A DNA stretch of 64,000 bases, taken from NCBI GenBank assembly GCA_965224025.1, contig OZ245033.1, positions 224,001-288,000 on the forward strand, given 5' to 3'. This document shows positions 16,616 through 44,456 of the stretch, one piece after another. The notes under the pieces were generated by a model. It had not been told where the DNA came from. It saw only the letters and a list, made by a program, of their open reading frames with translations, and did not search any database. Made by a program: the position numbers and the translations under genes. Numbering within the stretch: the first letter of the stretch is position 1; each line of letters opens with the position of its first letter. This stretch comes from Candidatus Multivorans sp. GTDB lineage: Bacteria > Acidobacteriota > Thermoanaerobaculia > Multivoradales > Multivoraceae.

Positions 16616-16890
16616 CCGCGAGCTAGCCGGCTGGCCGGAAGCGGCGTCCGCGTCTCGCTCATGGACTTGCAATCGGCAAGCCCATGAGCGACCGAGGCCC
16701 TCTCAGCGGTAGCGTTGCCTCGCTGCGGCGGCCGTCTCATCCTGGATCCTGGGGAGCGCCGGGACCTCGACTCTTTTCCGCTCCCTGTAGTCCCTGACGG
16801 CCTGACGGGGCCGCACCAGGATCCGCTCCAGTACCGAAAAGGGTCGGCACCCCCCTCGTATAGGGGATTATGTCGAATAGTGCCCAAGCG

Positions 16891-17334
16891 TCACGGGATA
16901 CCGGCGGCGTGGAAGAAGAACCGTTCGAGGTTCTCGCGCACGAAGACATCGAGAGCGATTCGTGTGCCTGCCGATCCGGGCTTGTGGAGGTGACAACGCA
17001 TCTCTACCGCGCTCCATCGAGGCGTGACGATCACATCTGACTGCTCCGCCATCAAGAACCGCAGTTGTAGGCCGGTCGACTGGAACGATACGGCAGCAAC
17101 CGACTCTCCGTCTCGTTTTTGCGCGACTCGCAACGTGAGTTCTTCTTTGACGACCTCGTACCGATACTTCTCGCCCCGGCACTCCAAGAGCTTGTTCATG
17201 TCCGCGGTATCGCGCTCGACAAGCTGCCGAACCTCGTTCTCCAAGAGAGAATCCGAGTTGCAAGCCGCACGTCGAAAGACCCATCGCGGAGCTTCTGTGG
17301 CGTTATCTCGTTGGGGTTCTTCGCTCATTGGCAC
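16891..17334 (-). CDS. hypothetical passenger protein of element A
   Basis: ORF ending next to the left IR and overlapping the upstream small ORF; no motif recognised. Confidence 0.55.
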   Translation of the reverse strand: MPMSEEPQRDNATEAPRWVFRRAACNSDSLLENEVRQLVERDTADMNKLLECRGEKYRYEVVKEELTLRVAQKRDGESVAAVSFQSTGLQLRFLMAEQSDVIVTPRWSAVEMRCHLHKPGSAGTRIALDVFVRENLERFFFHAAGIP

Positions 17335-17639
17335 TGCGGCGGCAGTAGTTCTTCGATCTTCCGTTCGATGTCGGCGGCGGCATGGAGGTTCTTCGTGTAC
17401 TGCTCTATGGCGCGGAGTGCTTCGGCGTAGTCCACGTAGCGCGCATCTCGCATCTCGACCGGATAGCCGCCAGTCATTCGGACGTTCTGATCCGCGTCTC
17501 CGATGGCGCTCAGCATTGACGCGGCGGCTTGTGTCAGAGACCGAGCGATCCCCTTCGCCTTGGTGCGGTAGCAGGCTGCTGAATTCTCGGCTTGCCGCCG
17601 CTTCAGCATGAGGTCGCCGAGGCGTTCACTGTCCGACAT
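17325..17639 (-). CDS. hypothetical helical passenger protein, divergent from the transposase
   Basis: MSDSERLGDLMLKRRQAE...; extended -10 TGgTAAGAT 7 nt before the ATG. Confidence 0.55.
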   Translation of the reverse strand: MSDSERLGDLMLKRRQAENSAACYRTKAKGIARSLTQAAASMLSAIGDADQNVRMTGGYPVEMRDARYVDYAEALRAIEQYTKNLHAAADIERKIEELLPPQCQ

Positions 17640-17656
17640 GGAGGCCATCTTACCAC

Positions 17657-17685
17657 TTGACAGGACGGGCACTATCCTGTAATCT
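17657..17685 (+). promoter_or_regulatory. transposase promoter with internal operator-like palindrome
   Basis: TTGACA-17bp-TAATCT, ATG 7 nt downstream; ACAGGA..TCCTGT inverted repeat across the spacer. Confidence 0.6.
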
Positions 17686-17692
17686 TCTGGGC

Positions 17693-18682
17693 ATGACGAC
17701 GACACTGCAAGACGCACCCGGTAAGCACTACCGGAAGGGCATGAGCCTGATCGACGCGATCCGCCTGTTCCCCGACGATGCGGCGGCGGAAGCGTGGTTC
17801 ACGTGCATCCGCTGGCCCGAAGGTCCATCGTGCCCGCACTGCGGCTCCGAGAACGTCCAAAGTGGCGCGAAGCACAAGACGATGCCGTACCGCTGCCGGA
17901 CGTGCCGCAAGCGCTTCAGCCTCAAGACTGGCACCGTCATGGAGGCGAGCAACCTCGGCTACCAAGTGTGGGCGATGGCGCTGTACCTGCTCCTGACGGG
18001 TCTCAAGGGCGTATCGAGCATGAAGCTGCACCGTGACTTGGACGTGACGCAGAAGACCGCGTGGCACCTCGCTCACCGTCTCCGCAAGGCGTTTGAGGCC
18101 GAAGGGCCGCGAGTCGTCTTCGAGGGGCCGGTAGAGGTCGATGAGACGTACATCGGCGGTCTGCGGAAGAACATGCACGCGAAGAAGCGGAAGACCCTTG
18201 AAGGCCGCGGCACCGTGGGCAAGACCGCCGTGGTCGGCATCAAGGATCGGGAGACCAAGAAGGTCGCGGCGCGGGTCGTCCGCTCGACTGACGGCGGGAC
18301 GCTTCAAGGTTTCGTGCGCGAGCACGTCGAACCCGGCGCGACGGTGTACAGCGACGATACCGGGGCGTACAGCGGTCTGACCGAGTACGAGCGCGGCACC
18401 GTCCGGCACTCGGTCGGCGAGTACGTGGACGGCAAGATCCACACGAACAGCATCGAGTCGCTTTGGTCGATGCTCAAGCGCGCCCACAAGGGCGTCTACC
18501 ACAAGCTCTCGCCGAAGCACCTACAGCGCTATGTCGATGAATTCGCGGGGCGGCAGAACATTCGGGAGTTCGACACCATCGACCAAATGACGGTCGTATC
18601 AGCGTGGCTGGTCGGCAAGCGACTCCGCTACCGCGAGTTGATCGCCGACAACGGTCTGCCGTCCGGCGCACGTTCGGCATGA
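17693..18682 (+). CDS. IS1595-family transposase
   Basis: Zn ribbon CPHC..CRTC, HTH SSMKLHRDLDVTQKTAW, EVDETY, VYSDD, HTNSIESLWS, LQRYVDEF. Confidence 0.96.
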   Translation: MTTTLQDAPGKHYRKGMSLIDAIRLFPDDAAAEAWFTCIRWPEGPSCPHCGSENVQSGAKHKTMPYRCRTCRKRFSLKTGTVMEASNLGYQVWAMALYLLLTGLKGVSSMKLHRDLDVTQKTAWHLAHRLRKAFEAEGPRVVFEGPVEVDETYIGGLRKNMHAKKRKTLEGRGTVGKTAVVGIKDRETKKVAARVVRSTDGGTLQGFVREHVEPGATVYSDDTGAYSGLTEYERGTVRHSVGEYVDGKIHTNSIESLWSMLKRAHKGVYHKLSPKHLQRYVDEFAGRQNIREFDTIDQMTVVSAWLVGKRLRYRELIADNGLPSGARSA

Positions 18683-20105
18683 CGGCGGACGGCCAGCGCG
18701 CCAGCGCGCCAGCGCGCCAGCGCGCCAGCGCGCCAGCGCGCCAGCGCCGGAATTGTCCACTGCAACTTCCGAGCCCAACTGGAAGAACCGGACTTTGTTC
18801 CACCGGGACAACCTAGAGGTCTTGCGCGGCATGAACAGTGAGACGGTGGACCTGATCGCCACAGACCCGCCGTTCAACAAAGGGCGGGACTTCCACGCGA
18901 CGCCCGACAGCCTCGCGGCAGGCGCGTCCTTCAAGGACCGCTGGACGTGGGAGAACGACGTCCAACAAGAGTGGGTGGACAAGATCGCCGATGACTGGCC
19001 TGCGATCAAGGAACTGGTCGAGTCAGCCGGGGCGTGCTACGGCGAGGACATGGCGGCATTCCTGGTCTGGATGGGGATTCGGTTACTCGAAATGCGGCGG
19101 GTACTCAAGCCGACCGGGGCGATCTACTTGCACTGCGACCACACGGCGGGCGCGTATCTCAAGATGCTCATGGACGCGATCTTCGGGCGCAGGCAACTCA
19201 AGAACGAGATCGTGTGGCACTTCCGCACATCGTCAGGAGCACCCAAGAAGCACTTCATCAAGAACACGAACACGATCTTCTTCTACGTGAAGTCTAGGAA
19301 CTCCGTGTTCAATCTCCAGAGAGAACCGTGGCCGGAGTCCACACTGAAGAAGTGGCAGCGCGACTCCAAGGGGAGGGTCTACCGAACCAACAACGGCAAG
19401 CGGTACTACATCGACCCTAAGGGCAAGCGGATGGACAACGTGTGGGAGATCACGCTGTCTTCACGATCTCGGGAGCGTGTCGGGTACCCGACGCAGAAAC
19501 CGATAGCGCTCTACGAGCGCATCGTCCAGGCATCGTCCAACGAAGGCGACATCGTTCTTGACCCATTCTGCGGTTGCGCGACTACATGCGTGGTGGCGGA
19601 GAAACTCGGCCGACAGTGGGTTGGGATCGACATTTGGGACAAGGCGCACGAGACGGTTCTGGACCGCCTACGGAAAGAAGAACTGTCGGTAGGGGGTGAC
19701 CAGGGCGACCGGCTCTTCACCGTTGGTGACGTGGCCTACCGGAGAGACGTTCCGGTGCGAACTGACGATGCCCAGGTCGCCGCTCCCAAGATGCGTCGCC
19801 GTAAGTACTTCTTCGAGGACCCGCCAGACGGTTACACGAACCGCGAGCGGAAGCAGTTGCTCGTCGAGACCAACGCCCGCGACGGACTCGTGTACTGTGA
19901 TGGCTGTGACCGCGGATTCGACTCGCCCGAGTACCTGCAACTCGACCACAACACGCCGCGATCAAGTGGCGGCAGCAACAACATCTCGAACCGTCGCCTG
20001 CTCTGCGGCCCGTGCAATCGCCGCAAGTCGAACACACTGACGCTCATCGGACTGCGGAGGAAGAACAAGAAGGACGGATTCATGGCGAATCAGACCGTAA
20101 CCTGA
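18679..20105 (+). CDS. DNA N6/N4-methyltransferase fused to a C-terminal HNH endonuclease; out of frame at a 5' octamer repeat (putative phase OFF)
   Basis: DLIATDPPF, YPTQKP, VLDPFCG; HNH with CDGC..LDHNTPRSSGGSNNISN..LCGPCNRRKS. The ATG at 18679 is frameshifted by (GCCAGCGC)7; the in-frame body starts at 18753. Confidence 0.9.
18692..18747 (+). repeat. perfect simple sequence repeat (GCCAGCGC)7
   Basis: Seven exact 8-nt units counted directly. Confidence 0.97.
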
Positions 20106-20119
20106 TAAGGATGGAGTCC

Positions 20120-21436
20120 TCAATCGCAATGCTCGGCGACCAGATCGTCCCACGCGGCGCACTTGCTCCGGTCATCGTCCGAGCAGTGCCCAAGGCCCTT
20201 CGGGCAGAGGTTCGCTTGGGCGCGGTACAGATCGCACTGAGCCTCCGTAGGCTTGTTGGCCTCGTGAATCGTCTGAAGGCCCTCGACGGAGACAGCGATG
20301 CTCGCCGCCGCGCTCTTGCAACTGGCGTCTTGAAGGTCTTGCAGGTCGCTCGTTGCGCCCCTTACGGCGGCGCAATCAGTACCGGCCAAGAACGACCCGA
20401 CATCGACCCGATCAGCTTCCAACGTGCCTTTGAGGTTCGGGACGAGTGGCCGCCCGTTCTCGCGCTTCTGATGGATCTCCGCTGCGGTCGCGTCCAGTAC
20501 GTGCAGCCTCGAAGACCCGTCGGGGTGCGTGAGACTCGCGGCCCACGCGGCACCGGGATTCCTAGCGATCATCTTCTCCCAGAACGCCGAGACGCACCCC
20601 ACGTCGTAGCCCGCCCGCGCGGCCAAGTAGACCCCCGCATAGTCGGCCTCGACCTCGAACTTCGGCGCGTGGTAGAGCGCCCCGAGGGCGCTGTAGTCCT
20701 GGTAGACGCCAGTCGCGACCGTCACGACGGCTCCCAGCAGAGCGCCGAGGATCTGGTTCTGCTTCACGGCCGCGAGATGCCCGTAGGCATTGTGCGCGAG
20801 TTCGTGGCCGAGCAGGTACGCGAGTTCGTCGTCGGTCTTGATGAAGTCCATCGCGGCGGTCGTGACCGCCACCGACTTCCCGTCCGCGAATGCGTTCACG
20901 GTCGCGTGTTCGAGCAGGCCAGCCGGGTAGTTGCAGTGCCGAGTGCTCGCCATGTAGAGCGTGGCTTCGCCTCCGTCTCGAAGAACGGTCAGCCTGTAGT
21001 GAAGCGACTGCGGGCTACGCTTCATCCGTCGCTCGGCTCGTCGTCCAGTGCCGAGATCCTTCCCGTCGCGGGCCACGATCCGGTCGCCCGCTCGCAGGCC
21101 CGCCTTTTCGGCCGGGGATCCTGCAGCTACGTGGGTCACGGTCACGTACTCGCTCGGGCCGTACTTCGCCGTCCATGCACTGCGATAGGGCTGCGCGGCT
21201 GTCGCGAGGTCGGCGAACCAGAAACCCGACATCAACCGCGTCTTCGTGCATCGGCCCGAGTTGGCGCTTGTGAGTCGGAACCAGACGCTCTGGAGCCTCT
21301 CGAACTGCTCCATGTGCTTCTTCGCCGCTTCCGCGACCGTGGCGTTGTAGGCGGTCGGGTTGACGGTTGGTGCCGACGTGGTGGTCGATACGCAGCCGAG
21401 CGCGGTCAACGCCAGTGCGGCGGCGAGTCTCTTCAT
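20120..21436 (-). CDS. lipoprotein M48-family metallopeptidase with PDZ domain (passenger of element A)
   Basis: Lipobox LTALGC; PDZ AGSPAEKAGLRAGDRI; NAFA..ELAYLLGHELAH; EVEADY; THP. Confidence 0.9.
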   Translation of the reverse strand: MKRLAAALALTALGCVSTTTSAPTVNPTAYNATVAEAAKKHMEQFERLQSVWFRLTSANSGRCTKTRLMSGFWFADLATAAQPYRSAWTAKYGPSEYVTVTHVAAGSPAEKAGLRAGDRIVARDGKDLGTGRRAERRMKRSPQSLHYRLTVLRDGGEATLYMASTRHCNYPAGLLEHATVNAFADGKSVAVTTAAMDFIKTDDELAYLLGHELAHNAYGHLAAVKQNQILGALLGAVVTVATGVYQDYSALGALYHAPKFEVEADYAGVYLAARAGYDVGCVSAFWEKMIARNPGAAWAASLTHPDGSSRLHVLDATAAEIHQKRENGRPLVPNLKGTLEADRVDVGSFLAGTDCAAVRGATSDLQDLQDASCKSAAASIAVSVEGLQTIHEANKPTEAQCDLYRAQANLCPKGLGHCSDDDRSKCAAWDDLVAEHCD

Positions 21437-21662
21437 GGGGGCCTCCTCCAGTTGAGGCACCAGCCCCTGGATTGGCGCCGGGCCGTTGCAACCGCCATGC
21501 AGCGAGCACGGACAAGGCTCCCGCCTATTCGCCCGGCTTCGGGAGCTACCCGCAGCCTCAGAACAGGCTGTTGTATTCAGCGGATAACCCGACTCAGGTC
21601 CCGCTGCTGACGATTGCAAGCCGCTACTGTAGCAGCACCAGTTCTAGGAGAACGGAGGCAAC

Positions 21663-21851
21663 GTGAGCAAGAAGAAGCGGAAGATCGAACTGGTCAAGGC
21701 GGACTACCAGCCGTCACGGGCCGAACAGCGCGACGAAGTAGCGCCGCCAGCGGACTTGATGGAGTTGCCGCTGATGGAACGGCTTGCCGAAGGTGCGCGG
21801 CGACTGCTTCAGCCCGTTGAGATCACCTACACCAAGCGCCCGCGCCGGTGA
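21663..21851 (+). CDS. small basic protein at the right end of element A
   Basis: GGAGG RBS, GTG start, 62 aa, stop 3 bp before the right IR. Confidence 0.65.
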   Translation: MSKKKRKIELVKADYQPSRAEQRDEVAPPADLMELPLMERLAEGARRLLQPVEITYTKRPRR

Positions 21852-21881
21852 GCGGCTTGGGCACTATTCGACATAATCCCC

Positions 21882-22918
21882 TTTCGGATGGTGCGGGCGA
21901 CGGCCTTCATGGGTTCGACCTTGGAGCGGTTCACGTTGGTGCACCACTGATGGAGCATTCGCAGCACGACGTTGATCTGCTTGCGGTTGAGAATTTCGCG
22001 GAGTTGCTCCCGATAGAGCCAGGCGCGTGCGGTGCGTCGGCTGGCGACCCTCTTGACGAAGCGGTCGAGGTCGGCCCGTTGGGCCGGCGTCAGGGAGTCG
22101 CGGTTCTTGAGCAGCGTCCAGCGCAGGCCCTTCAGCGACGGATCGAGGCGCTGTTCGAGGCGCCGGGTCTCGTCCACCGCCTTCGAGGCCAGGGCCATGA
22201 CGTGGAACTTGTCGAGGGTCACCTCGGCGTTGGGGAGATTCTCGGCGACGCCCTTGAGGAAGGCGGCCGACATGTCGATGGACGCCCGGCTGATCGCGGC
22301 GGGATCGCCGCCGCGCCTTTGCAGATCGTCGGCGAACTCCTCGATCGTGCCGGACTTGCGTCCCTCGGCGAGGAACACCACGCGCCGGCGCTCGCTGTCG
22401 GCGACCGCGGTCACGTAGTCGTGCCCCTTGGCGCGGGAAGTCTCGTCAATGGCCACGTGGCGCAGTTCGGAGAGGTCGTCCCGGTCGACCGCCAGCTCGA
22501 CGTAGCGCTTGCAGATCGCGTGCACCCGATGCCACGACACCCCGGTCAACCGGGCCACCGCAGCGAAGGTCATGTCTCGGCACATGGCCAGAATCAAGGC
22601 TTCGAACAGCAGCGTGAAGCCGGACAATCTGCCCGACCAGGGCGGAGTCACCAACGCCACCCGCTGGTCGGGGAGTCGCACACGGGGCACTCGCGCCTCG
22701 AGCAGGCACTCGTGCTGGAAGAAGTTGAGGTGCCGATAGCGCTTGATCTGCGTGTCGTGCACCGGATGAGAACCGCCGTCCCCCTCGTGGGCGAATCGGC
22801 TGCCCTTCCTGAAGTCGATCCGTATCGTCAACCGACGCTCCCTCTCACAGAAGTCCACGCCGTCAACGAACCACGGCGCCGACACGCCCAGCGCTCTCGC
22901 GAACAATTCCCTCTGCAT
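21882..22918 (-). pseudogene. ISL3 transposase, C-terminally truncated
   Basis: RHLNFFQHEC, FTLLFEA, AIDETS..GHDYVT, SIDMS, DKFHV; reading stops at ARTIRK where the IS1595 IR begins. Confidence 0.92.
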
Positions 22919-23166
22919 CTCTCGTCCTCCTTCAGTCGGAACAGGAGAGACGAGTCTTGCTCATTCCGATCGCCCGCGACTACAGCCGCCACCCGAAATC
23001 GCCGCGAACGCCCTCCCCACCGGACAGCTTGCGCCCTCGCCGCTACCGGTCTTCCGCAGATTCCACAGCCCGACGGCGGCGGCTACGGCGGCGGAGGCCG
23101 CTATCCCAAGACCCCCTCAGCATCTGCACTCGCCCGCGCCCTACCCACTCGCAACTCGAAAGAGGC
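21882..23166 (-). mobile_element. ISL3-family IS, 3'-truncated by element A
   Basis: Probable left end GCCTCTTTCGAG at 23166 next to AT-rich ATAACAAT; transposase cut at the IS1595 IR. Confidence 0.8.
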
Positions 23167-23348
23167 ATAACAATTCGTACACACAGCCGGGCACGAGCCA
23201 CCCGATCGACCCCAACGCCAGCCCGGACGATCCACTCGGAAACAACTTCCAATATTTTGACCTTGGCGCGCGCAAATTCTACAACTCCTTCTCATCGTTT
23301 GGAGGAGAGGGATTCTCAGAGCTTCCGCGGAAACAAGGTAACGCCTCG

Positions 23349-24704: not shown

Positions 24705-24741
24705 AAGGGCTCTGCTTACAGCGCCCCATAAACTTCACTCG

Positions 24742-26361
24742 ATGAAGCAAACGTCCGGCGTCGTAACTCGGCGCGATCTGCTCCGCAATCTCGGCCTGGT
24801 AGCCGGGACGGGCTTGTTGACCCCTGGTTGTAGCCGTCGTGATGCCGGTTCGCCCGGCGAGCGGCCCAACATCGTCATGATCATGTCCGACGACATGGGT
24901 TACTCCGACCTGGGCTGTTACGGAGGCGAAATCCGCACCCCGCACCTGAACCGGTTGGGTTTCGGTGGGATGCGCTTCACACGCTTCTACACAAACAACG
25001 TGTGCTCGCCGTCGCGAGCGTCCCTGATGACGGGGATTCAAAGCGACCTCTCGCTTGAATTGGGAGAAGGGCCGGGGCTGCAACAGGCGCACATCAGCCA
25101 CCATGCACCGACCCTTGCCGAGGCGCTCCGAGGCGCCGGTTACGGAACGTACATGAGCGGCAAATGGCATTTGGCCTCGGCCACGGACGATTTCGCGAAC
25201 CTTCCTTGTCAACGAGGCTTCGATCGATTCTATGGTGGCATTATCGGGGCCTACAGCTACTTTGCGCCGTACTCGTTGATGCGAGACAACCAAACTTGTC
25301 CCGAGGAGTACGAAGACCCCGCCTACTATTTCACTGACGCGATATCCGACAATGCCGTCGATTTCCTGGAAGAGGCAGATGACAAGGACGAACCCTTCTT
25401 TCTCTACGTGGCTTATAACGCCCCCCACTGGCCGCTTCATGCCCGCGAGAGCGACGTCGCGAAGTACAGGGGGAACTACGCGCTCGGCTGGGACGAGCTT
25501 CGCGATCAGCGACACGCCCGAATGAAGAAGTTGGGAGTCATCGATCCGGATTGGCAGCTCTCCCCAAGGAACCCTGACGTGCCGGCGTGGGAAGACGAGC
25601 CGCACAAAGATTGGCAGCAACGGCGCATGGAAGTCTATGCCGCCCAAGTCGAGGTCATGGACGAAGGGATCGGACGCATCCTCGCGGAGCTCGAGCGTCA
25701 GGGCAAGCTCGACAATACCCTGGTCTGCTTCCAGCACGACAATGGCGGCTGCCGCGTCGAATACACGACCGATCACCCACATGAGAAATTCCAGTTCGAG
25801 GGGACACGTGACGGCCGTCCGCTCCACGCCGGAAATGATCCGGGGATTCTGCCCGGGCCCGAAGACACGTTTCAGAGCTACGGCTACGGCTGGGCGAACG
25901 CGTCCAACACACCGTTTCGACTCTACAAATCGCACGACCACGAGGGCGGGATCTGTGTTCCGTTGATTGCTCACTGGCCAGGGGTCATCAAGCCCGGCGC
26001 GATCAACGAGCAAACAGCCCACGTCACGGACCTGATGCCGACGTTTCTTGACGTTGCCCGCGCGGAGCGTCCGCCTGCTGCTGGGGACGAGCCGCCCATG
26101 CCCATGGAGGGCCATACCCTGGGCCCCGTGTTGCGGGGGCGCAGACGCGAGCCGCCCGAGGCACTTTTCTGGCAAGGGAGCGCGAGCCGTAGCCGCGCCG
26201 TCCGCCAGGGCAAGTGGAAGCTCGTGGCGGTCGGTGGTCAGCCGTGGGAGCTCTACGATGTCGAGGCCGATGGGACGGAGCTGAGCGACCTCGCGCCCCA
26301 GATGAGCGGAAAAGTCGCGGAACTGGCAGCCCTGTGGGACGAGTGGGCTTCGCGTAGATGA
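24742..26361 (+). CDS. arylsulfatase (Tat-exported)
   Basis: TRRDLL Tat motif, RPNIVMIMSDDMG, CSPSRASL, GKWHL, YNAPHWP. Confidence 0.95.
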   Translation: MKQTSGVVTRRDLLRNLGLVAGTGLLTPGCSRRDAGSPGERPNIVMIMSDDMGYSDLGCYGGEIRTPHLNRLGFGGMRFTRFYTNNVCSPSRASLMTGIQSDLSLELGEGPGLQQAHISHHAPTLAEALRGAGYGTYMSGKWHLASATDDFANLPCQRGFDRFYGGIIGAYSYFAPYSLMRDNQTCPEEYEDPAYYFTDAISDNAVDFLEEADDKDEPFFLYVAYNAPHWPLHARESDVAKYRGNYALGWDELRDQRHARMKKLGVIDPDWQLSPRNPDVPAWEDEPHKDWQQRRMEVYAAQVEVMDEGIGRILAELERQGKLDNTLVCFQHDNGGCRVEYTTDHPHEKFQFEGTRDGRPLHAGNDPGILPGPEDTFQSYGYGWANASNTPFRLYKSHDHEGGICVPLIAHWPGVIKPGAINEQTAHVTDLMPTFLDVARAERPPAAGDEPPMPMEGHTLGPVLRGRRREPPEALFWQGSASRSRAVRQGKWKLVAVGGQPWELYDVEADGTELSDLAPQMSGKVAELAALWDEWASRR

Positions 26362-27356
26362 TCGCCCCCCACCCCTTCGACGTACCGATCCATCTCTTCG
26401 GGGCTCTGCGATCACCGAAGCAGATGCTCGCCGACCAGGAGGAGGACGGCCATGCCTCGGTGCACGACGACCAAACGGCGAAGCAACTAGGCTTTCGTGC
26501 CGGCCCGATCGAAGGGCCGACCCACTTCAGCCAGTTCGAGCCGTTGCTTGCCGAGATCTGGGGCAAAGAGTGGTTCGAGAGCGGCTGCCTGAGCGCCCAC
26601 TACCGCAATATGGTGATTGAAGGGGAGGAGGTGCGGGCATTCGTGGAGCGGCCGACCGAAGGTGAGATCCAGGTCCGGATCCGAGCGGAGAAGGCCGATG
26701 GCACGGAGGTTCTGGTCGGTACCGCCTCGATCGGCAGCGATCCGCCACAGTCCGAGCTGGAGACCCGCCTCGCCAATCTTCGCCCACCTGGGCAGCTGGT
26801 GATCCTGCGTGATCTCGAGGTCGGCATGCGGGGGGCCGTGGTCGAAGAGGTGCGGATGGACTTCGACCAAAATATGGGTAAGTTGTACCCCTTCTCGCTC
26901 AACCAGAAGCTGGAGAAGATGACCGAGCGATCGCCCTGGTTCACCGAGGAGGGTGGCGGCGGCTCGCCCTGGGGTCGAGCGATCATTCCGCTCGAGATGG
27001 TCAGTGTGCTGCTCTGCTATAGCGGCGATCTTGCCTGCTTCCCCAGGCGCGGTCCGGCCGTCGGTCTCATTGCAGGCCAGCAGATCCGGATGATCAAAGG
27101 TCCGCTCTTCGTCAGCGAGGACTACTTCGTCGATCGCGAGATCATCGCGCTGAGCGAGAGTCGGCGAACCGAGTCGACCTGGACTCGGGTGTCTGTCCGT
27201 GAGCCGGGGTCGAAGGATCTGGTGGCCGAGATGATCGTCGGCGGAGCCACTCTCAAGGACTCGTACGCCAACTACCAGCAGGAGTTGGCGGCGTTGACTC
27301 GATAGTGGAGCCTGGGGCTGTCGCGCCCTTTGTGGGACGAGTGGGCTTCGCGTAGA
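26333..27356 (+). repeat. 26-bp exact direct repeat pair (26333-26358 and 27331-27356) flanking one gene
   Basis: TGTGGGACGAGTGGGCTTCGCGTAGA at both positions. Confidence 0.9.
26358..27305 (+). CDS. hypothetical protein, probable double hotdog (MaoC-like) fold
   Basis: SVHDDQTAKQLGFRAGPIEGPTH resembles the MaoC hydratase motif. Confidence 0.6.
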   Translation: MIAPHPFDVPIHLFGALRSPKQMLADQEEDGHASVHDDQTAKQLGFRAGPIEGPTHFSQFEPLLAEIWGKEWFESGCLSAHYRNMVIEGEEVRAFVERPTEGEIQVRIRAEKADGTEVLVGTASIGSDPPQSELETRLANLRPPGQLVILRDLEVGMRGAVVEEVRMDFDQNMGKLYPFSLNQKLEKMTERSPWFTEEGGGGSPWGRAIIPLEMVSVLLCYSGDLACFPRRGPAVGLIAGQQIRMIKGPLFVSEDYFVDREIIALSESRRTESTWTRVSVREPGSKDLVAEMIVGGATLKDSYANYQQELAALTR

Positions 27357-36445: not shown

Positions 36446-36699
36446 CGCGACTCGTTCTCGCCGTAGTCGGGCGAGGTGAAGTCGATCGGGTCGTCCACTT
36501 CGCGTGCCGGCAATTCGAGATCGAAGCCGTCGTCGCCGACGATCCGGCGGATCATGGCGCCGACCGGCTCTTCGTCGACGACCGCGCTGCGGAGGATTCG
36601 CCGAACCGTCTCCTCCAGGGACAAAGACTCCCGCTCCGCACGAATCTTCAGGCGATGGACGACCTCACTGTCCAGGCGACGTACACTCAGGCTTGCCAT
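36442..36699 (-). CDS. FitA-like RHH antitoxin
   Basis: MASLSVRRLD..LKIRA..SLEETVRRIL; overlaps the toxin. Confidence 0.88.
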   Translation of the reverse strand: MASLSVRRLDSEVVHRLKIRAERESLSLEETVRRILRSAVVDEEPVGAMIRRIVGDDGFDLELPAREVDDPIDFTSPDYGENESR

Positions 36700-36774
36700 G
36701 GGTTTCACTCCATCAGTTACACGGTCGGATGCTAGCACGACATGCCGAAGTGCTGGCAGTCAGTTGACCACACC

Positions 36775-37968: not shown

Positions 37969-38039
37969 CGGGCGCGTCCATTCAGAGGGCGATCGCGGAA
38001 TGGTCTTGACTATTCCACGATAGTAAGAAGAATGGTCGC

Positions 38040-39251
38040 GTGGACTTGGAGTCGCCGCGGATCTATGACCCGATCCTGACGGAGCATCTCGGCCGGAATC
38101 GGCAGATGGCCTTCGTCAGCGGCCCGCGGCAGGTCGGCAAGACGACCACCTGTCGCGCCAGGGCCGACGCAACCCTCAACTGGGACGATCTCGACCATCG
38201 GGAACTCGTGCTCGCCGGTCCCCGTCGGGTCGTCGATGCGTTGGGGCTGGACCGCCTGTCCGAGACGCCGCCCGTCGTGCTGTTCGACGAGCTCCACAAG
38301 TTCGCGCGCTGGAAGTCCTTCCTCAAGGGACTCTTCGACAGCTACGGGGGCCGGATGCGGATTCTGGTCACCGGGAGCAGTCGGCTGGACGTCTACCGGC
38401 GCGGTGGCGACAGCCTGATGGGGCGCTACTTCCTCTACCGGATGCACCCCTTTTCGGTGGCTGAAGTTGCGCTGCGGGATCCGGCCGAGCCGCTTGGCCT
38501 GCTGCGCTCGCCCCGGGCGATTGGCGACGGCGACTTCGAGGCGCTCTGGAGGCACGGCGGTTTTCCCGAGCCGTACCTCAGGCGTGACATCCGCTTCACC
38601 CGTCGCTGGCGGACTCTCCGGTTCGGGCAACTGGTCCGTGAGGAGGTGCGAGACCTGACCCGAATCCAGCAACTGGACCAGTTGGAGGTCCTGGTGCGTG
38701 TGCTCTCCGACCGTTCCGGACAGCAGGTGGTCTACGACAATCTCGCAAGGCAGGTCCAGGTGGCGGCCGACACCGTTCGCCGCTGGGTCGCGGCGCTTGT
38801 CGACCTTCACCTGGGTTTCCTGGTGCGCCCCTGGTTTCGCAACCTCTCTCGGTCGCTGCGCAAGGAGCCCAAGTGGTACCTGCGGGACTGGTCAGGCGTC
38901 GAGGACACTGGCCAGCGCGCAGAGACATTCGTTGCCTGCCACCTCGCCAAGGCCGTCGACGGCTGGAACGACCTCGGCTTGGGCGACTTCGAACTCGCCT
39001 ATCTGCGGGACAAGGAGAAGCGCGAAGTCGATCTGCTCGTCGTGCGGGATGGCGACCCCTGGATCCTCGCCGAAATCAAGCACGGCGGCGACTCGCTGAG
39101 CCCTCACCTCCGCTACTACCAGGACCGCCTGCGGGCGCCCTTCGCCTTCCAGGTCTCGGTCGCGGCTGACTACGTCGACCGGAGCTGCTTCGAGGATCCT
39201 GGAAGGCCCTTGATCGTCCCGGCGCGAACGTTGCTGTCGCAGCTCCTGTGA
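38040..39251 (+). CDS. AAA_14 ATPase with DUF4143 (PD-(D/E)XK-like) C-terminus
   Basis: GPRQVGKTT, LFDELHK, VTGSS, GGFPEP, PKWYLRD, REVDL..EIK. Confidence 0.9.
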   Translation: MDLESPRIYDPILTEHLGRNRQMAFVSGPRQVGKTTTCRARADATLNWDDLDHRELVLAGPRRVVDALGLDRLSETPPVVLFDELHKFARWKSFLKGLFDSYGGRMRILVTGSSRLDVYRRGGDSLMGRYFLYRMHPFSVAEVALRDPAEPLGLLRSPRAIGDGDFEALWRHGGFPEPYLRRDIRFTRRWRTLRFGQLVREEVRDLTRIQQLDQLEVLVRVLSDRSGQQVVYDNLARQVQVAADTVRRWVAALVDLHLGFLVRPWFRNLSRSLRKEPKWYLRDWSGVEDTGQRAETFVACHLAKAVDGWNDLGLGDFELAYLRDKEKREVDLLVVRDGDPWILAEIKHGGDSLSPHLRYYQDRLRAPFAFQVSVAADYVDRSCFEDPGRPLIVPARTLLSQLL

Positions 39252-39372
39252 CTGGGGGTGCCGCGAGTCATCGCCGGTGATCAGAGTGCCGGTGACCTAC
39301 ACTCCGAAGGCGTAGCGTCGGTTCTCGGCGGCATCTGGGGCTCTAGGGAGTCCGGAAAGTGGAGGAAACACG

Positions 39373-40731
39373 ATGAGACTTGCGAACCATCTCTGGGACC
39401 GCTTTGGCCGCTTGACCCTCGACGACATCCCGGTGGAGGCCCGCACCGTGGCCGGCCAGTGTGTGCTCGACTGGTTCGGCTGTGCGCTGGCCGGCAGCCG
39501 CGAGCCGCTGTCCGGGATCTTGCGCGATGAGCTGGCCGGCCAGGCCGGTCCGTGCTCGATCGTCGGCACGGAGCTGCACTGCGCGCCGGGCGTCGCCGCC
39601 CTGCTGAACGGCGCCGCCGGCCACGCGCTCGATTTCGACGACACGCACAGCATGATGGGCGGTCATCCAACGGTGCCGGTCTTCCCGGCCGCCCTGGCGC
39701 AGGCCCAGGAGATGGGCGCGCGCGGCGAGCGGCTGCTCGTCGCCTTCATTGTCGGCGTGGAGGTCGAGTCGCGCGTCGGCGCGCTGATCGGAGGCGCCGC
39801 CTACGCCAAGGGCTGGCACTCGACGTCGACGATCGGCGTCCACGGCGCCGCGGCCGCGGCCTGCCACCTGCTCGGTGCGAGCAACGAGCAGTTCGCGCAC
39901 GCCCTGGGCCTCGCGGCCTCGCAGGCCAGCGGTCTCAAGGCGAACTTCGGCACGATGACCAAGCCGTTCCACGCCGGGCACGCCGCCGAGCGCGGCCTGC
40001 TCTCGGCGCGGCTGGCGATGCGCGGCTTCACCTCGAACCCGGAGGCCGTTGACGGCCGGCAGGGCTACGCCGACGCCGCGGCTACCGGCCACGAAGCGGT
40101 CAAGTGGCAGCGACTGGAGGAACAGGACGGCCGCTTCCTGATCGAGGACACGCTGTTCAAGTACCACGCCGCCTGCTACCTGACCCACGCGGCGATCGAG
40201 TCGGTTGGGCGGCTGCGGCCCCAGTTGGCGGCGGAGGGGATCTCGGCAAGGGACGTCGAGAAGGCGATCGTCACGGTGCATCCGGGCCTGCTCGACGTGT
40301 GCGGCATTCCCGAACCGAAGACCGGCCTGGAGGCGAAGTTCAGCCTGGTCGCCACGACGTCGTTGGCGATGCTCGGAATCGACACGACGGACACCGGGAC
40401 CTTCGTCGACGAGACGCTGGACGATCCGGAGGTTGCGCGGATGATCGACAAGGTCGAGGTGCGGACCGACCGCTTGCTCGGCCACACTCAGGCCCGGGTG
40501 GAGCTACGGGCGAACGGGCATCGGCTGGAGGAGTTCCATGACACCGGCATCCCGGCGACGGACCTGGAGGCGCAGGGGGCGAAGCTGGCGGCGAAGATGA
40601 CTGGTTTGGCGGCGCCGCTGCTGGGGACGGAGGCGAGCGAGCGGCTGCGGGAGTTGTCGTTGCGGTTGGAGACGGTTACGGACGTTCGCGACCTCGCTGG
40701 GCTTGCCGCCGGTTCGCGCGAAGCCGCATGA
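39373..40731 (+). CDS. MmgE/PrpD family protein
   Basis: NGAAGHALDFDDTH, GWHST, FGTMTKPFHAG, FKYHAAC, AKFS. Confidence 0.93.
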   Translation: MRLANHLWDRFGRLTLDDIPVEARTVAGQCVLDWFGCALAGSREPLSGILRDELAGQAGPCSIVGTELHCAPGVAALLNGAAGHALDFDDTHSMMGGHPTVPVFPAALAQAQEMGARGERLLVAFIVGVEVESRVGALIGGAAYAKGWHSTSTIGVHGAAAAACHLLGASNEQFAHALGLAASQASGLKANFGTMTKPFHAGHAAERGLLSARLAMRGFTSNPEAVDGRQGYADAAATGHEAVKWQRLEEQDGRFLIEDTLFKYHAACYLTHAAIESVGRLRPQLAAEGISARDVEKAIVTVHPGLLDVCGIPEPKTGLEAKFSLVATTSLAMLGIDTTDTGTFVDETLDDPEVARMIDKVEVRTDRLLGHTQARVELRANGHRLEEFHDTGIPATDLEAQGAKLAAKMTGLAAPLLGTEASERLRELSLRLETVTDVRDLAGLAAGSREAA

Positions 40732-40856
40732 GGGACTACGCCGCCACGAGGTGGCTTCCCGAACTCAAATCCGTCCTGTAGGGTTCTCCGTTCGCTACAC
40801 TGCCGCCATCGCGGCTGTGGTGAATCGAGTAACTAGCGCCACGGAGGTACTCCGAC

Positions 40857-41198
40857 ATGAGTAGACCGCCTGGGTGGCGAATCACGGTTGGGATTGAGGC
40901 GCATCAAGAGGACGGTGAGTGGGTCGCCACCTGCCCGGACCTCGGCTTGGCCAGTCAGGGAGCTACGCTCGACGAGGCCTTGGAGATGCTGCAAGAGGCG
41001 ACGGTCCTCTTCTTTGAAACGAGCGACGAACTGGGGATCCTGGCCGAGGAACTGGTCAAGAAGGGACTCCTGACGCGCGATCTGGCCCCCCACTTCAGGT
41101 TCGAGGTCACGACATCGGCGCTGCCGCGCCGCGCGACCGATGGCGGGCCCCCGACGCTTCTCGAGTTGCCACTGAATGGCCAGGTTGCCGTCACTTAA
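40857..41198 (+). CDS. hicB: HicB-like antitoxin
   Basis: WVATCPDLGLASQGATLDEALEMLQEA. Confidence 0.85.
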   Translation: MSRPPGWRITVGIEAHQEDGEWVATCPDLGLASQGATLDEALEMLQEATVLFFETSDELGILAEELVKKGLLTRDLAPHFRFEVTTSALPRRATDGGPPTLLELPLNGQVAVT

Positions 41199-41424
41199 GC
41201 CGCGAGAAGTTGTACGCGCCTTCGAGCGACTCGGTTACAAGACGATCCGGCAGAAGGGGTCGCACCTGTGGACCCCGGGACGTTCACCGGTGGTGGTGCC
41301 GATGCACCGGAAGGACGTGAAGCTTGGAACTCTGTCCAGCTTGCTCCGGGGAGCCGGGATCGAACGCGACGAGTTCCTGGTGGCGCTGAAGAAAGAAACG
41401 GAAGTGATGGGCACGGGCACCTAA
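41176..41424 (+). CDS. hicA: HicA toxin (possibly with a small internal deletion)
   Basis: REVVRAFERLGY..RQKGSH..VVVPMH..GTLSSLL. Confidence 0.85.
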   Translation: MARLPSLKPREVVRAFERLGYKTIRQKGSHLWTPGRSPVVVPMHRKDVKLGTLSSLLRGAGIERDEFLVALKKETEVMGTGT

Positions 41425-41478
41425 GCGGAGCCGGCCTTGCGGCCGGCGCACCCAGTGATTTGCGGCCAGCTTTCCGAG

Positions 41479-41599
41479 CTACCCCTCAATCCCCCCAATG
41501 CACATGTACTTGATCTCGAGGTAGTCGTCGAGTCCGTACTTCGACCCTTCGCGGCCGTGGCCGGATTCCTTCATGCCGCCGAAGGGGGCCATTTCGTTG
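41479..41599 (-). pseudogene. gabD: succinate-semialdehyde dehydrogenase, 3' fragment
   Basis: [39 protein letters not shown], continuing the gene across element B. Confidence 0.92.
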
Positions 41600-41631
41600 G
41601 GGGATTATATCCGTAGGTTGACAGAAACCGA

Positions 41632-41766
41632 TCACGCCTCGGCCTTCTTGGTGGCCTTGACCGGCTTCGCCCGGTCCTTCATCAGCAGCCAGTGCGCCAC
41701 CTGCTTCGGAGTCGCGCCGTTGTAGTTGGCCTTCAATCCCTTGCGGCGAGGCTTCTTGATCTTCAT
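41632..41766 (-). CDS. small basic protein (44 aa) at the downstream end of element B
   Basis: MKIKKPRRKGLKANYNGATPKQVAHWLLMKDRAKPVKATKKAEA; below the ORF-track cutoff; stop 8 bp from the IR. Confidence 0.55.
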   Translation of the reverse strand: MKIKKPRRKGLKANYNGATPKQVAHWLLMKDRAKPVKATKKAEA

Positions 41767-41809
41767 AACAGCGCCGCTCACCTAGGCCCGCCGTAGATGG
41801 AATGCTCCC

Positions 41810-43396
41810 TCAGAACAGTTCCTGCTGCGCCATCGGCTTGCCGCTGTACGGATCGTTCATCGTCGGCAAGCGTGGCAGTCTCCCGTCGAAGTACTCGCTG
41901 ATCGGCCATAGCTGCATTCTCCTGTAGGGCTGACCGGACACGCTGATCGTGCCAGCCTCTGCCGCTTCCGCCCGCGCTGCACGCGAGCCGACTGGTTCCA
42001 GTGTGACGAAGCAGCCGAGAGCCGCTTCGTCGCGGTCTGTGACATGGCGGAAGTCCCGCAACGCTCCGAGATGGAATCCACCGCCCTTGATCTGCGCCAG
42101 CGCGAGACGGGAATCGTAGTCGTCCGGCTGAGCGGCGATCACGGCGCGACCGTCCACGCCGCCGTCCGCAACCTGCTTCATGTTCGGCGCGAAACCGGGG
42201 AGCCGCGTCACCGCCCACGATTCAAAGCTGAACGGCTGCTCGGTTGCCAGCTTGCGCGCCGATGCGAGATCGACCGGGATCCCCTTCGTCGGGATCGTCC
42301 GGTTCTTCAGCCGCTTCTCACGGATCAGGTCGATAGCGAATGACGAAATGTCGATCCCGGCCCACTGTCGGCCGAGACGCTGCGCCGCTTCAATGGTCGT
42401 ACCGCAACCGCAGAACGGATCGAGAATCAGGTCGTCAGGGTTACTGCTCGCTTCGATGATCCGCTCCAGCAACGCGCGGGGCTTCTGGGTCGGGTAACCC
42501 ATCCGTTCCTTCGCCTGGGCGCCGATCGGCCCTATGTCCGTCCATAGGTCCTGCAACGGCCGGCCCTTGGCCTCGTCCAAATAGCGCTTGTAGGCCGGGA
42601 CGCGGCCCGGCGCTGTTTGTACAACCCGTCCTTCGTCGATCATCCGCTGCATCCGCTCGCGGGAGTAGGCCCAATAGCGCGTTACGCCCAGTACCTCGTA
42701 CTGCGGGTTGCCCTTCGCTGCACCGCCGCGCCCAGTCATATCGCTGAGTCGATAGCGCCGTCCAGTGTCTTCTTCGACATAGCGGTAGAAACCGTCGACG
42801 TATTGGTCATCGTATGGCGTGTACAGCGGATTCCAAGCCCAACCGTCGCCCCTCGAGTAGTAGAGGACGCGATCCAGTACACGTCCAAATTGTCGTCTTC
42901 CCTGCGCGCCGTCGTTGTGGCTGCTGGTTCGCTTCCATCCGATTTCGGATCGGAAATTCGGCACACCGAAGATCGCGTCCATGACGATTTTGAGATAGTG
43001 GCTCGCGGTCGGGTCACAGTGCAAGTAGATCGAACCTGTTGGCTTGAGGAGCCGGTGCATGTGCTCCAAGCGCTCCGCCATGTAGGTCAGGTAGGCGAGC
43101 ATCCCGGACGGGCCGATGGCGTGCCGTAGGCCCACTATCGCGTCGTGGGCGCGTCGTGCGGGCGCACCCTCGTAGGCCGCGTAGCGGTCCGCCGCGGCTT
43201 CGTCCCACGCCCATGTGTCGCTGAACGCCCGGTACTGCGCGTCAGCGCCGCCGCGAGCCGAGTAGAGGATGTTGTAGTCGGCCTTCGAGTTGAATGGCGG
43301 ATCGAGGTAAATCAGGTCTACGGACTGATCGTCCCATCGCTGCATCCAGTCGAGGCAGTCACCGTAGTACAGCGTGCCCGCGTCCGGTGGGTTCAT
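41810..43396 (-). CDS. DNA N6/N4-methyltransferase fused to a C-terminal Mrr-like PD-(D/E)XK domain
   Basis: DLIYLDPPFNS, YPTQKP, ILDPFCGCGTT; FESWAV..DGGVDG..AQIKGG. Confidence 0.92.
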   Translation of the reverse strand: MNPPDAGTLYYGDCLDWMQRWDDQSVDLIYLDPPFNSKADYNILYSARGGADAQYRAFSDTWAWDEAAADRYAAYEGAPARRAHDAIVGLRHAIGPSGMLAYLTYMAERLEHMHRLLKPTGSIYLHCDPTASHYLKIVMDAIFGVPNFRSEIGWKRTSSHNDGAQGRRQFGRVLDRVLYYSRGDGWAWNPLYTPYDDQYVDGFYRYVEEDTGRRYRLSDMTGRGGAAKGNPQYEVLGVTRYWAYSRERMQRMIDEGRVVQTAPGRVPAYKRYLDEAKGRPLQDLWTDIGPIGAQAKERMGYPTQKPRALLERIIEASSNPDDLILDPFCGCGTTIEAAQRLGRQWAGIDISSFAIDLIREKRLKNRTIPTKGIPVDLASARKLATEQPFSFESWAVTRLPGFAPNMKQVADGGVDGRAVIAAQPDDYDSRLALAQIKGGGFHLGALRDFRHVTDRDEAALGCFVTLEPVGSRAARAEAAEAGTISVSGQPYRRMQLWPISEYFDGRLPRLPTMNDPYSGKPMAQQELF

Positions 43397-44379
43397 GCCG
43401 AGCGAGCGCCGGACGGCAGGCCGTTGTCGGCGATCAGGTCACGGTACTGGAGCCGCTTGCCCGCCAGCCCCTCGGTGACGGACGCCATTTGCGCCAGCGT
43501 GTCGAGATCGCGGAAGTTGTGACGGCCCGCGAACTGGTTGACGTAGCGCTGTAGATGCTTCGGTGAGAGCTTGTGGTACACGCCCTTGTGGGCGCGCTTG
43601 AGCATCGACCAGAAGCTCTCGATCGAGTTCGTGTGAACCTTGCCCGCAACGTACTCGCCGACCGAGTGCTTGACGGTGCCGCGCTCGTACTCGGTCAAAC
43701 CGCTGTACGCCCCCGTATCGTCCGTGTAGACCGTTGCGCCGGGTTCGACGTGCTCACGGACGAACGCTTGCAGGGTCTCGCCGTCGGTCGAACGGACGAC
43801 ACGCGCCGCCACCATGCCGGTCTCGCGGTCCTTGACGCCCACCACCGCTGTCTTGCCGACAGAGCCACGGCCTTCGAGGGTCTTGCGCTTCTTCGCGTGC
43901 ATATTCTTCCGCAGACCGCCGAAGTACGCCTCATCGGCTTCTGCCGGTCCCTCGAAGCGCACGGTCGGCCCCGAGTCGCTGAACTCGCGGATGCGCTGGA
44001 GCATGAACCACGCGGTCTTCTGAGTGACGCCCAGGTCACGGTGGATCTTCATCGACGACACGCCCTTGAGGCTCGTTGTGTCGAGGTAGATCGCGTACAG
44101 CCACTTGAGCAGAGGCAGCTTCGACCGCGCCATCACGGTGCCGGTCTTCACCGAGAAGTACCGCTTGCAGTCGCGGCAGCGGTACGGCATCTTCGCGTGG
44201 CTGCACTCGTGGTTGTTGTCGGTGCCGCAGTGCGGGCAGTAGCGCTCGCCGTCCGGCCAGACGATCGCCTCGAACCACTGCCGCGCCGCTTCCTCATCGG
44301 GGAACATCCGCTGCAAGTCGAACAGCGTGATGCCCTTCCGGTGAGCCTTGCCGGGTGCCTTGAGTTCTGTGTCGTTCAT
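43393..44379 (-). CDS. IS1595-family transposase
   Basis: CPHC..CRDC, SSMKIHRDLGVTQKTAW, EADEAY, VYTDD, HTNSIESFWS. Confidence 0.96.
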   Translation of the reverse strand: MNDTELKAPGKAHRKGITLFDLQRMFPDEEAARQWFEAIVWPDGERYCPHCGTDNNHECSHAKMPYRCRDCKRYFSVKTGTVMARSKLPLLKWLYAIYLDTTSLKGVSSMKIHRDLGVTQKTAWFMLQRIREFSDSGPTVRFEGPAEADEAYFGGLRKNMHAKKRKTLEGRGSVGKTAVVGVKDRETGMVAARVVRSTDGETLQAFVREHVEPGATVYTDDTGAYSGLTEYERGTVKHSVGEYVAGKVHTNSIESFWSMLKRAHKGVYHKLSPKHLQRYVNQFAGRHNFRDLDTLAQMASVTEGLAGKRLQYRDLIADNGLPSGARSA

Positions 44380-44456
44380 CGCTTCTCCCTCCGTCAACCG
44401 TGAGGTATACCCTACCGGACGGAGAGCCAGTTTGTCAACCTAGAGATATAATCCCC

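Follow-up and report, generated by a model that had tools for sequence, protein, structure and literature searches.

Siguier, Gagnevin and Chandler reportedly described, in 2009, transporter insertion sequences (tIS) of the IS1595 family that carry passenger genes. The term 'transporter ISs' is attributed to Siguier et al. 2009 in a passage of PMC3129680, and the same paper is cited in a passage of PMC2853133. In excerpts of the latter (Furuta, Abe and Kobayashi 2010), restriction-modification units lie within inverted repeats with 8-bp duplications and have no transposase of their own, action in trans being left open. Phase-variable methylases are recognized, in excerpts of PMC5909438 and PMC7383803, by a repeat of at least three units whose length is not divisible by 3, and the words 'transposase' and 'mobile' have no occurrence in PMC5909438. 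Passenger-carrying IS1595 elements, repeat-bounded restriction-modification units and repeat-switched methylases are already known, each separately. Here we analyze two IS1595 elements, A and B, in a 64,000-nucleotide (nt) stretch of a Candidatus Multivorans sp. genome (contig OZ245033.1, positions 224,001 to 288,000; hereafter the window, whose own numbering we use), and we lean, with moderate confidence, towards reading their sequences as a transposon whose restriction-modification cassette is translationally coupled to the transposase and gated by a phase-variable repeat.

The elements described here match tIS in their DDE transposase of the IS1595 type with its zinc ribbon, in having terminal inverted repeats and an 8-bp duplication, and in carrying passengers downstream of the transposase. 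Our searches found no tIS described with their other features, namely a small basic open reading frame (ORF) that closes the passenger slot, a start codon overlapping the transposase stop, mainly restriction-modification-type cassettes and a repeat at the junction. With the units of PMC2853133, as presented in its excerpts, they share restriction-modification genes within terminal inverted repeats and an 8-bp target duplication, but they are autonomous and exchange their cassettes. As in phasevarions (Type III and Type I; Atack et al., excerpts of PMC5909438 and PMC7383803), a repeat with a unit not divisible by 3 (non-3n) stands near the methylase 5' end, with a variable copy number and a predicted ON/OFF frameshift; here, however, the gene is a single-chain fusion of a beta-class methylase and an HNH nuclease rather than mod or hsd, the units are 7-8 nt long and GC-rich, the start codon would come from the transposase stop, and the locus is itself a transposon. 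The hosts differ as well, being large-genome, probably symbiotic Acidobacteriota here and small-genome pathogens in the case of phasevarions.

Integrons likewise offer one fixed position, a single upstream expression signal and interchangeable promoterless cassettes, but a scan of the ORFs and a repeat search found no integrase, attI or attC here, and expression would depend on translational coupling instead of a Pc promoter. Type IIC/IIG-like single-chain enzymes resemble the cargo in joining methylase and nuclease domains in one polypeptide, the examples known to us combining a PD-(D/E)XK nuclease with a gamma-class methylase. We know of no characterized enzyme with a beta-class methylase and a C-terminal HNH domain, and a literature search found no 'MTase-HNH'-type description. 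Judged from their listings, literature searches also returned no IS-borne repeat-gated methylase and no closed slot with a conserved small ORF, a stop-shared start codon, dominant exchanged restriction-modification cassettes or a hypermutable repeat at such a junction.

Results

The junction between transposase and cargo

Our evidence consists solely of assembled consensus sequences. A scan with both transposases, taking one genome per species, yielded 35 related loci (named L001, L002 and so on), all of them covered by the junction comparison. They come mostly from Thermoanaerobaculia and Ca. Multivorans assemblies, with a few from Alphaproteobacteria, Acidimicrobiia and others, and the clade is thus found mainly in Acidobacteriota (Thermoanaerobaculia, Ca. 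Multivorans) genomes from metagenomes. Element A spans 16863-21881 (5,019 bp) and element B 41600-44456 (2,857 bp), both delimited by repeat search. The core features of A are:

16863-16889 (+): left terminal inverted repeat (begins GGGGATTAT), 27 nt, repeated perfectly in inverted orientation at 21855-21881
17693-18682 (+): transposase, 329 amino acids (aa), IS1595 family; PF12762 E 2.8e-40, PF12760 E 7.2e-8, NCBIfam transpos_IS1595 E 3.2e-53
18679-18682 (+): ATGA, the transposase stop plus a potential cargo start, out of frame with the cargo as sequenced
18692-18747 (+): simple sequence repeat, GCCAGCGC x 7.0, 100% perfect; Tandem Repeats Finder (TRF) score 112, the highest in the window
18753-20105 (+): cargo, a beta-class N6/N4 DNA methylase with a C-terminal HNH nuclease, 450 aa from the TTG at 18753
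21663-21851 (+): small basic ORF, 62 aa, isoelectric point (pI) 10.0, a backbone gene that aligns with the small ORFs of other elements; its end lies 30 nt from the repeat end
21855-21881 (-): right terminal inverted repeat, perfect over 27 nt

Those of B, which is read on the opposite strand, are:

44457-44464 (-): target-site duplication CAACGAAA, copy 1, read from the flanks
44433-44456 (-): left terminal inverted repeat, 24 nt, containing TTGACA; 92% match to 41600-41623 (22/24)
43393-44379 (-): transposase, 328 aa, IS1595 family, 94% identical to that of L004; PF12762 E 1.2e-39, PF12760 E 3.6e-8
41810-43396 (-): cargo, an N6/N4 DNA methylase with a C-terminal Mrr-like (PD-(D/E)XK-type) domain, 528 aa, its ATG overlapping the transposase stop (ATGA)
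41632-41766 (-): small basic ORF, 44 aa from its ATG, pI 10.9, a backbone gene; its end lies 32 nt from the repeat end
41600-41623 (+): right terminal inverted repeat, 24 nt
41592-41599 (-): target-site duplication CAACGAAA, copy 2, past which the interrupted aldehyde dehydrogenase frame runs on to 41479

An earlier note on this DNA had described two IS1595 transposases with a shared 39-nt tail, and the degenerate tail indeed matches the window exactly twice, at 18644-18682 (+) and 43393-43431 (-), with no match in 100 shuffles and with PF12762 in both proteins. It had further held that the ATG within the tail's terminal GCATGA begins a methylase-nuclease gene in either element. This is so in B, where the usual family N-terminus, M-x3-6-TLYYGDCLDWM, coincides with that ATG and no repeat interrupts the junction. 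In A it fails: reading from the ATG at 18679 runs into a stop at 18816 after 45 codons, and the methylase lies in another frame, open back to 18642, whose first canonical start is the TTG at 18753. The proposal that the tail serves as an expression anchor fares in the same way, since the cargo can be read in frame from the stop-overlapping start in B, L006, L010, L019 and L031 but not in A. The last transposase codon, the GCA that creates the ATG, is found in A, B, L001, L006 and L007, and the stop/start overlap was not seen in the distant loci L021-L028 (at most 43% identity).

The repeat in A had gone unmentioned in the earlier note, as had the M48/PDZ gene and the two upstream ORFs described below. 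Wherever a methylase-HNH gene follows the transposase, the junction from the stop ([A/G]TGA) to an invariant GGAATT is almost wholly tandem repeat, and its unit is lineage-specific: GCCAGCGC seven times in A (8 nt x 7.0), CGGGGGC ten times in L001 (7 nt x 10), CGACCGGG eight times in L004/5 (8 nt x 8.1) and CGCGGGA about nine times in L006 (7 nt x 9.0), with A's leader and unit present in a single copy in L007. In the 455,625 nt searched for arrays (window plus loci), the junction arrays are the only perfect ones with at least five copies and a period not divisible by 3. The tracts thus have at least three units of a length not divisible by 3, as phase-variable methylases do, and their copy number varies between homologous copies, CGACCGGG occurring eight times in L004/5, twice in L011, about 1.6 times in L002/3 and once in L015/16. 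The L004 and L011 elements of one genome (2,577 nt) differ only by a 48-nt, six-unit deletion and one transposase base, so that the tract changes at least as fast as the rest of the element combined; the L011 transposase is frameshifted. An assembly artefact was considered and rejected, as repeats occupy this junction in independent assemblies. The 455 kb hold one further non-3n array, a 10-nt repeat (GCCGAGACAA x 5.1, 92%) at L008:4896-4946 (= L009:2698-2748), which lies about 600 nt outside its element.

Read from the overlapping start, L006 alone stays in frame, giving a 520-aa methylase-HNH protein with a repeat-encoded N-terminal extension. A, L001, L002/3, L004/5/11 and L015/16 would each need a shift of one or two units to come into frame, and their cargo ORFs are otherwise intact (424-488 aa); by arithmetic, the ATG of A joins the methylase frame at six or nine units (minus one or plus two). 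One might take such a repeat to be functionless, a slippage by-product at a GC-rich junction, with the out-of-frame methylase-HNH copies, A included, being decaying, inactivated passengers. Most copies are indeed out of frame, L031 has a split methylase and a truncated transposase, L011 carries its frameshift, and the cargo is not needed for transposition. We nevertheless consider this quite improbable: four different units have expanded independently at the same few bases in four lineages, no comparable array occurs elsewhere in the 455 kb, the out-of-frame ORFs are otherwise intact, and the tracts are 100% perfect, which implies ongoing turnover.

A candidate phase-variable switch

We suggest instead that ribosomes ending at the transposase TGA would restart at the overlapping ATG or GTG and so translate the cassette, tying cargo expression to that of the transposase. 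In methylase-HNH lineages, a hypermutable 7- or 8-nt repeat would separate this start codon from the methylase frame, and slipped-strand gain or loss of units would move the cassette in and out of frame, an ON/OFF phase variation in which A would be OFF with its seven units and ON with six or nine; B, without a repeat, would be constitutively coupled. A silenced cassette may allow the element to spread without restriction damage to a new host, with ON variants then providing methylation and restriction. Family members of the methylase-HNH type usually start two to four codons before a conserved PNWxNRTLFHGDNL segment, and transposon-borne copies keep this segment with synonymous differences, a coding constraint upstream of any canonical in-frame start. 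As the segment is constrained and has no canonical start there, translation would have to come from upstream. No ribosome-binding sequence is evident before the overlapping start.

Whether the tract is translated depends on which codon is used: it lies inside the ORF if the ATG/GTG overlapping the stop is the start (in frame in L006), and outside if the start is a downstream ATT or TTG. The latter are offered by GGAATT, which follows the repeat (18748-18754 in A), is invariant in the six methylase-HNH lineages (A, L001, L002, L004, L006, L015) and could be either a non-canonical start or a cassette border. The sequence on both sides of it differs between elements, and over 14 window ORFs GGA makes up 10.4% of glycine, ATT 12.6% of isoleucine and GCA 8.5% of alanine codons. 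Were this near-cognate codon the start, the repeat would be an untranslated spacer whose length tunes re-initiation, a 'volume control' acting through distance or RNA structure. The ATT stands in the methylase frame in L001, L002, L004, L006 and L015, a 1-nt indel in A puts the overlapping TTG in frame, and either codon lies 4-7 codons before PNW, near the usual family start. Such a spacer would fit the invariance of GGAATT despite its rare codons and differing flanks, would account for five of the six junction types looking 'OFF' and for the intact cargo ORFs of the x1 and x1.6 alleles, and agrees with the ability of the repeats to fold into long GC hairpins. We still judge it unlikely. AUU initiation is in general rare and weak, no clear Shine-Dalgarno sequence lies ahead of the ATT/TTG, and the four units that have expanded, at 7 or 8 nt, all have lengths not divisible by 3. 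Moreover, the maintained stop-overlapping ATG/GTG with its rare GCA codon would be left unexplained and would drive out-of-frame translation across the proposed start. Fold energies are ordinary except in A (z -2.83 in A, -1.44 in L006, -0.71 in L004, +0.56 in L001 and +1.28 in L015), and we know of no precedent for repeat-length spacer tuning of this kind.

Several results weigh against the switch itself. One of the six distinct methylase-HNH junction types is ON (L006) and five are OFF. The three short tracts (x1, x1.6 and x2), which are presumably stable, all fall on the OFF side. Eight of the closest database relatives of the A cargo are called from an internal methionine, none of its 120 listed relatives has the repeat-encoded N-terminus, and the L006 repeat peptide is found in none of the best 120 of 668 matches to the first 60 residues of that protein. 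The in-frame ATT (TTG in A) within the invariant, rare-codon GGAATT could be the real start, the repeat then being untranslated. Finally, A has no target duplication, and movement of its 5,019 bp as one unit is assumed from its perfect repeats. Because five of six types are OFF, no ON-type protein occurs among the listed relatives and an ATT/TTG start is possible, our confidence in the coupled, phase-variable cassette is no more than moderate.

Slot contents and cassette exchange

The slot starts at the transposase stop codon and holds mostly DNA methylase-nuclease genes. Methylase-HNH genes occupy it in A, L001, L002, L004, L006, L011, L015 and L031, with further copies in L003, L005 and L016 (Pfam); the methylase of L031 is split. 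The HNH domain that had been noted in A stands: its cargo matches PF01555 (E 1.8e-47) and, at residues 382-427, the HNH profile PF01844 (E 2e-9), with 37.9 bits against a curated cut-off of 21.4. Its closest relatives in the PDB are M.MboIIA and M.RsrI, and all 8000 of the 8000 scored database relatives reach E <= 1e-20. The named closest methylase-HNH relatives come from a sponge symbiont.

B carries the methylase-Mrr-like gene. Its methylase part is beta-class (PF01555, E 2e-40), but the Mrr-like nuclease that the earlier note had named finds weak backing: Mrr_cat matches at E 0.0031 with 18.1 bits, under the 21-bit curated cut-off, and PF04471 is annotated on 26 of the 120 best among 295 relatives of the C-terminal domain at E <= 1e-5. 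A model of residues 365-528 (predicted local distance difference test, pLDDT, 88.9; predicted template modelling score, pTM, 0.85) resembles the PD-(D/E)XK nucleases MspJI, Can2, EndoMS, AspBHI and LlaBIII, the best match being MspJI at E 0.012 and none reaching E <= 0.001. The invariant residues of B-type C-terminal domains include D...Q-x-K. From these several indirect results, the label 'Mrr-like' for the putative nuclease is reasonable but not proven. PADLOC picks up only the methylase part of the cargo fusions, which we predict from their domain architecture to be single-chain restriction-modification enzymes.

Other cassettes occur in the same place. The slot of the Acidimicrobiia locus L019 (2516-4227) houses both genes of a complete Type II system: a D12 methylase (E 1.4e-8), whose start is overlapped by the transposase stop as GTGA, and behind it a NotI-like endonuclease (E 8.1e-42). 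The contig is short, and no element ends were found on it. L010 (5947-10376; 4,430 bp, duplication TTCGCGAA) contains a P63C protein gene coupled by ATGA, DUF4160, DUF2442 and, within the repeats, a tRNA-Pro(TGG) gene. The gene after the transposase has no Pfam match in L007, L008/9, L012/13, L017, L018, L020 and L032.

The two window elements diverge directly after the tail, as had been noted; this holds for the DNA and not for the proteins, whose methylase domains align as homologues along 361 aa (34% identity, E 9e-54). The B transposase shares 94% of its residues with that of L004, 92% with that of L006 and 88% with that of L015, whereas the B cargo shares 35-39% with theirs (36% with L004). 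Among the methylase-HNH proteins of L004, L006 and L015, all within B's backbone group, identity is 55-65%. Between L001 and L002 the relation is turned round, with 68% identity for the transposases and 73% for the cargoes. At the DNA level, identity between B and L004 is 89% for the left arm and 82% for the right, but 52% for the cargo. The maximum-likelihood transposase tree separates (A, L001) from (B, L002, L004, L006, L015) with 100/100 support, while the maximum-likelihood cargo tree joins (L001, L002), also with 100/100 support. Approximately unbiased (AU) tests, with transposase and cargo groups named after the identity matrix had been seen, show that neither tree's grouping is accepted by the data behind the other tree (p 2.75e-5 and 1e-6). 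The interchangeable cassettes proposed earlier are thus borne out by incongruent trees and, judged from these comparisons, cassettes are exchanged between backbones. The fixed slot, too, is where it had been placed, directly after the transposase stop and bounded on the far side by the conserved small basic ORF. Since neither random cargo positions nor fully congruent trees were seen, a fixed slot with exchangeable cassettes stands.

The manner of exchange is less well served by the integron-like arrangement suggested earlier, in which the transposase tail would be a recombination anchor where cassettes are captured site-specifically. Cassettes are clearly exchanged, homology between backbones whose cargo differs ends abruptly at the stop codon and at the small ORF, and the short GGAATT is invariant after the repeat in all methylase-HNH elements. 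The scanned element ORFs, however, hold no tyrosine or serine recombinase domain, no repeated attC-like or other att-like site was seen, GGAATT is missing from B, L010 and L019, and the tail is ordinary coding sequence, with homologous recombination in the conserved arms explaining the mosaics equally well. We therefore regard site-specific capture as very unlikely. The conserved tail also occurs with cargo unrelated to restriction-modification (L007, L010) and, from its distribution, is the ordinary C-terminus of this transposase clade.

Backbone, ends and mobility

The shared backbone consists of an inverted repeat, the transposase, the slot, a small basic ORF of about 45-65 aa and a second inverted repeat. 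Both window transposases have the IS1595 zinc ribbon (PF12760) and PF12762, which places them in the IS1595 family; they are 71% identical, and on these sequence grounds A and B are members of one clade of cargo-carrying ('transporter') IS1595 elements. The element ends given for them earlier, perfect 27-nt repeats in A and 24-nt repeats in B, were recovered at the same positions. The inverted repeats begin GGGGATTAT in A, B and 14 related loci, matching at 27/27 nt in A and 22/24 nt in B. An 8-bp target-site duplication is a feature of the IS1595 family (ISfinder). Ends of the GGGG(A/C)TTAT type could be placed at 18 loci, which with A and B makes 20 elements, and a matching 8-bp duplication is present at 16 of these, namely B and 15 of the 18 loci; the misses are A, L008, L012 and L013, of which L012 and L013 have poorly matching ends. 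Near-identical copies, cargo included, lie at different sites of one genome in L002/3 (1 nt different), L004/5/11 (L004/5, 0 nt) and L015/16 (0 nt). The elements measure 2.2-6.0 kb, so all carry cargo, and the whole unit transposes with 8-bp target duplications. A plasmid collection gave 59 records with transposase relatives, all distant (<60% identity, best 44.7%); in two that were inspected the next gene begins about 280 nt downstream and is not a methylase.

The small basic ORF before the far repeat, likewise noted earlier, is present in both window elements. In A, B, L001, L004, L006, L008, L012, L015 and L032 it stops 30-35 nt short of the far repeat end; homologues at another distance occur in L002 (5 nt), L007 (63 nt) and L031. 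The aligned proteins share K/R-K-P ... A-D/N-Y ... ATP-E/K-Q/E-V-A, and 11 of 12 are basic (pI 9.7-11.7). B's is 75-81% identical to those of L004, L006 and L015, and pairwise similarity between A and B is lacking because some carry an insert of about 12 aa. In L006 and L015 the cargo stop and the start of the small ORF share an ATGA. The ORF is present also where the cargo is not a methylase (L007, L008, L012), and is therefore a gene of the element rather than of the cassette and closes the slot. A profile search with the alignment found 143 representative proteins at E <= 0.001, nearly all of 35-77 aa; Pfam, PADLOC and NCBIfam offer no named family, and the Atlas clusters are unnamed.

B interrupts an aldehyde dehydrogenase gene, of which the upstream part lies at 44440-45855 (PF00171, E 4.6e-164) and the last 39 codons past B; the rejoined C-terminus resembles what we take to be succinate-semialdehyde dehydrogenase GabD. 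As the 8-bp duplication brackets the entire 2,857 bp of B, the passenger moved with the element. A HicB-like/HicA toxin-antitoxin pair lies about 175 nt from the right end of B (40857-41424, +; HicA_toxin E 3.3e-13).

A and B are related and inverted relative to each other, as the ends of a composite transposon mobilizing the 19.7 kb between them might be. Their inverted repeats, however, differ past the first 9-10 nt, the two transposases reach only 71% identity, and B has its own 8-bp duplication inside one gene; we give such a composite next to no credence and have rejected it.

Extra passengers and surroundings

Besides its methylase-HNH gene, A carries three further passengers:

16891-17334 (-): upstream ORF, 147 aa, no assigned function; its start overlaps the end of the next ORF
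17325-17717 (-): second upstream ORF, 130 aa in the ORF list, or 107 aa if it starts from an ATG at 17648
20120-21619 (-): M48 metallopeptidase with a PDZ domain, 499 aa; PF01435 E 1.5e-15, PDZ_6 E 6.7e-9

The peptidase gene sits between the cargo and the small basic ORF. Neither upstream ORF (16891-17717, -) has a match in PADLOC, NCBIfam or Pfam; the Atlas clusters of the 147-aa ORF are unnamed and mostly from Acidobacteriota, and the 130-aa ORF is similar to the upstream ORFs of L001 over a single 16-aa stretch.

No matching 8-bp duplication flanks A, whose flanks read CTCGTATA and TTTCGGAT. An ISL3-family transposase gene adjoins it (21827-22918, -; DDE_Tnp_ISL3 E 4.7e-48), its 3' end running into the right repeat of A and its match ending at profile position 195 of 240; the rest of this gene is not on A's other side, in agreement with the lack of a target duplication. 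Because of the missing duplication and the adjoining cut-off ISL3 gene, A has probably gone through a rearrangement.

The gene to the left of A (15638-16615, +) matches the PADLOC candidate defence family PDC-S64 (E 3.2e-36) and no Pfam family. Between the two elements, a perfect 26-nt direct repeat (26333-26358 and 27331-27356, 998 nt apart) brackets an ORF without a Pfam match (26358-27305) that adjoins a sulfatase gene. This sulfatase (24742-26361) and a thioredoxin protein (45959-47170) have weak, sub-threshold ankyrin-repeat matches; gene content of the sulfatase/ankyrin type is typical of sponge-associated bacteria. Promoter and terminator scans of both elements gave hits no more frequent than in shuffled sequence and are uninformative, and no RNA family was found in the window (Rfam).

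Discussion

Our comparison of two window elements with their relatives outlines how a restriction-modification cassette may be placed under the control of the transposon that carries it. Taken further, and here we are decidedly more tentative than about the gated cassette itself, the elements may be autonomous transposons with their own contingency locus, in which the transposase stop would supply the start of the cassette, a 7/8-nt repeat would gate its frame, and cassettes would be swapped within a slot bounded by the tail (plus GGAATT) and by a conserved small DNA-binding-like protein. Defence and methylation would thereby depend on transposase translation and, in addition, switch stochastically, the whole acting as a mobile, self-silencing restriction-modification shuttle in symbiont genomes.

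The mobility of restriction-modification systems and the phase variation of methylases have so far been studied apart, mostly in pathogens, and one compact autonomous element appears here to unite transposition, translational coupling and a hypermutable switch on a methylase-nuclease gene. The methylase-HNH fusion, moreover, represents a very large and apparently uncharacterized enzyme family. If the switch is real, it would answer how a potentially lethal restriction gene enters unmethylated genomes, the gene arriving silenced and turning on in a minority of cells. If true, contingency loci would also have to be reckoned with in environmental and symbiotic bacteria that have large genomes, and a directly testable system would be at hand.

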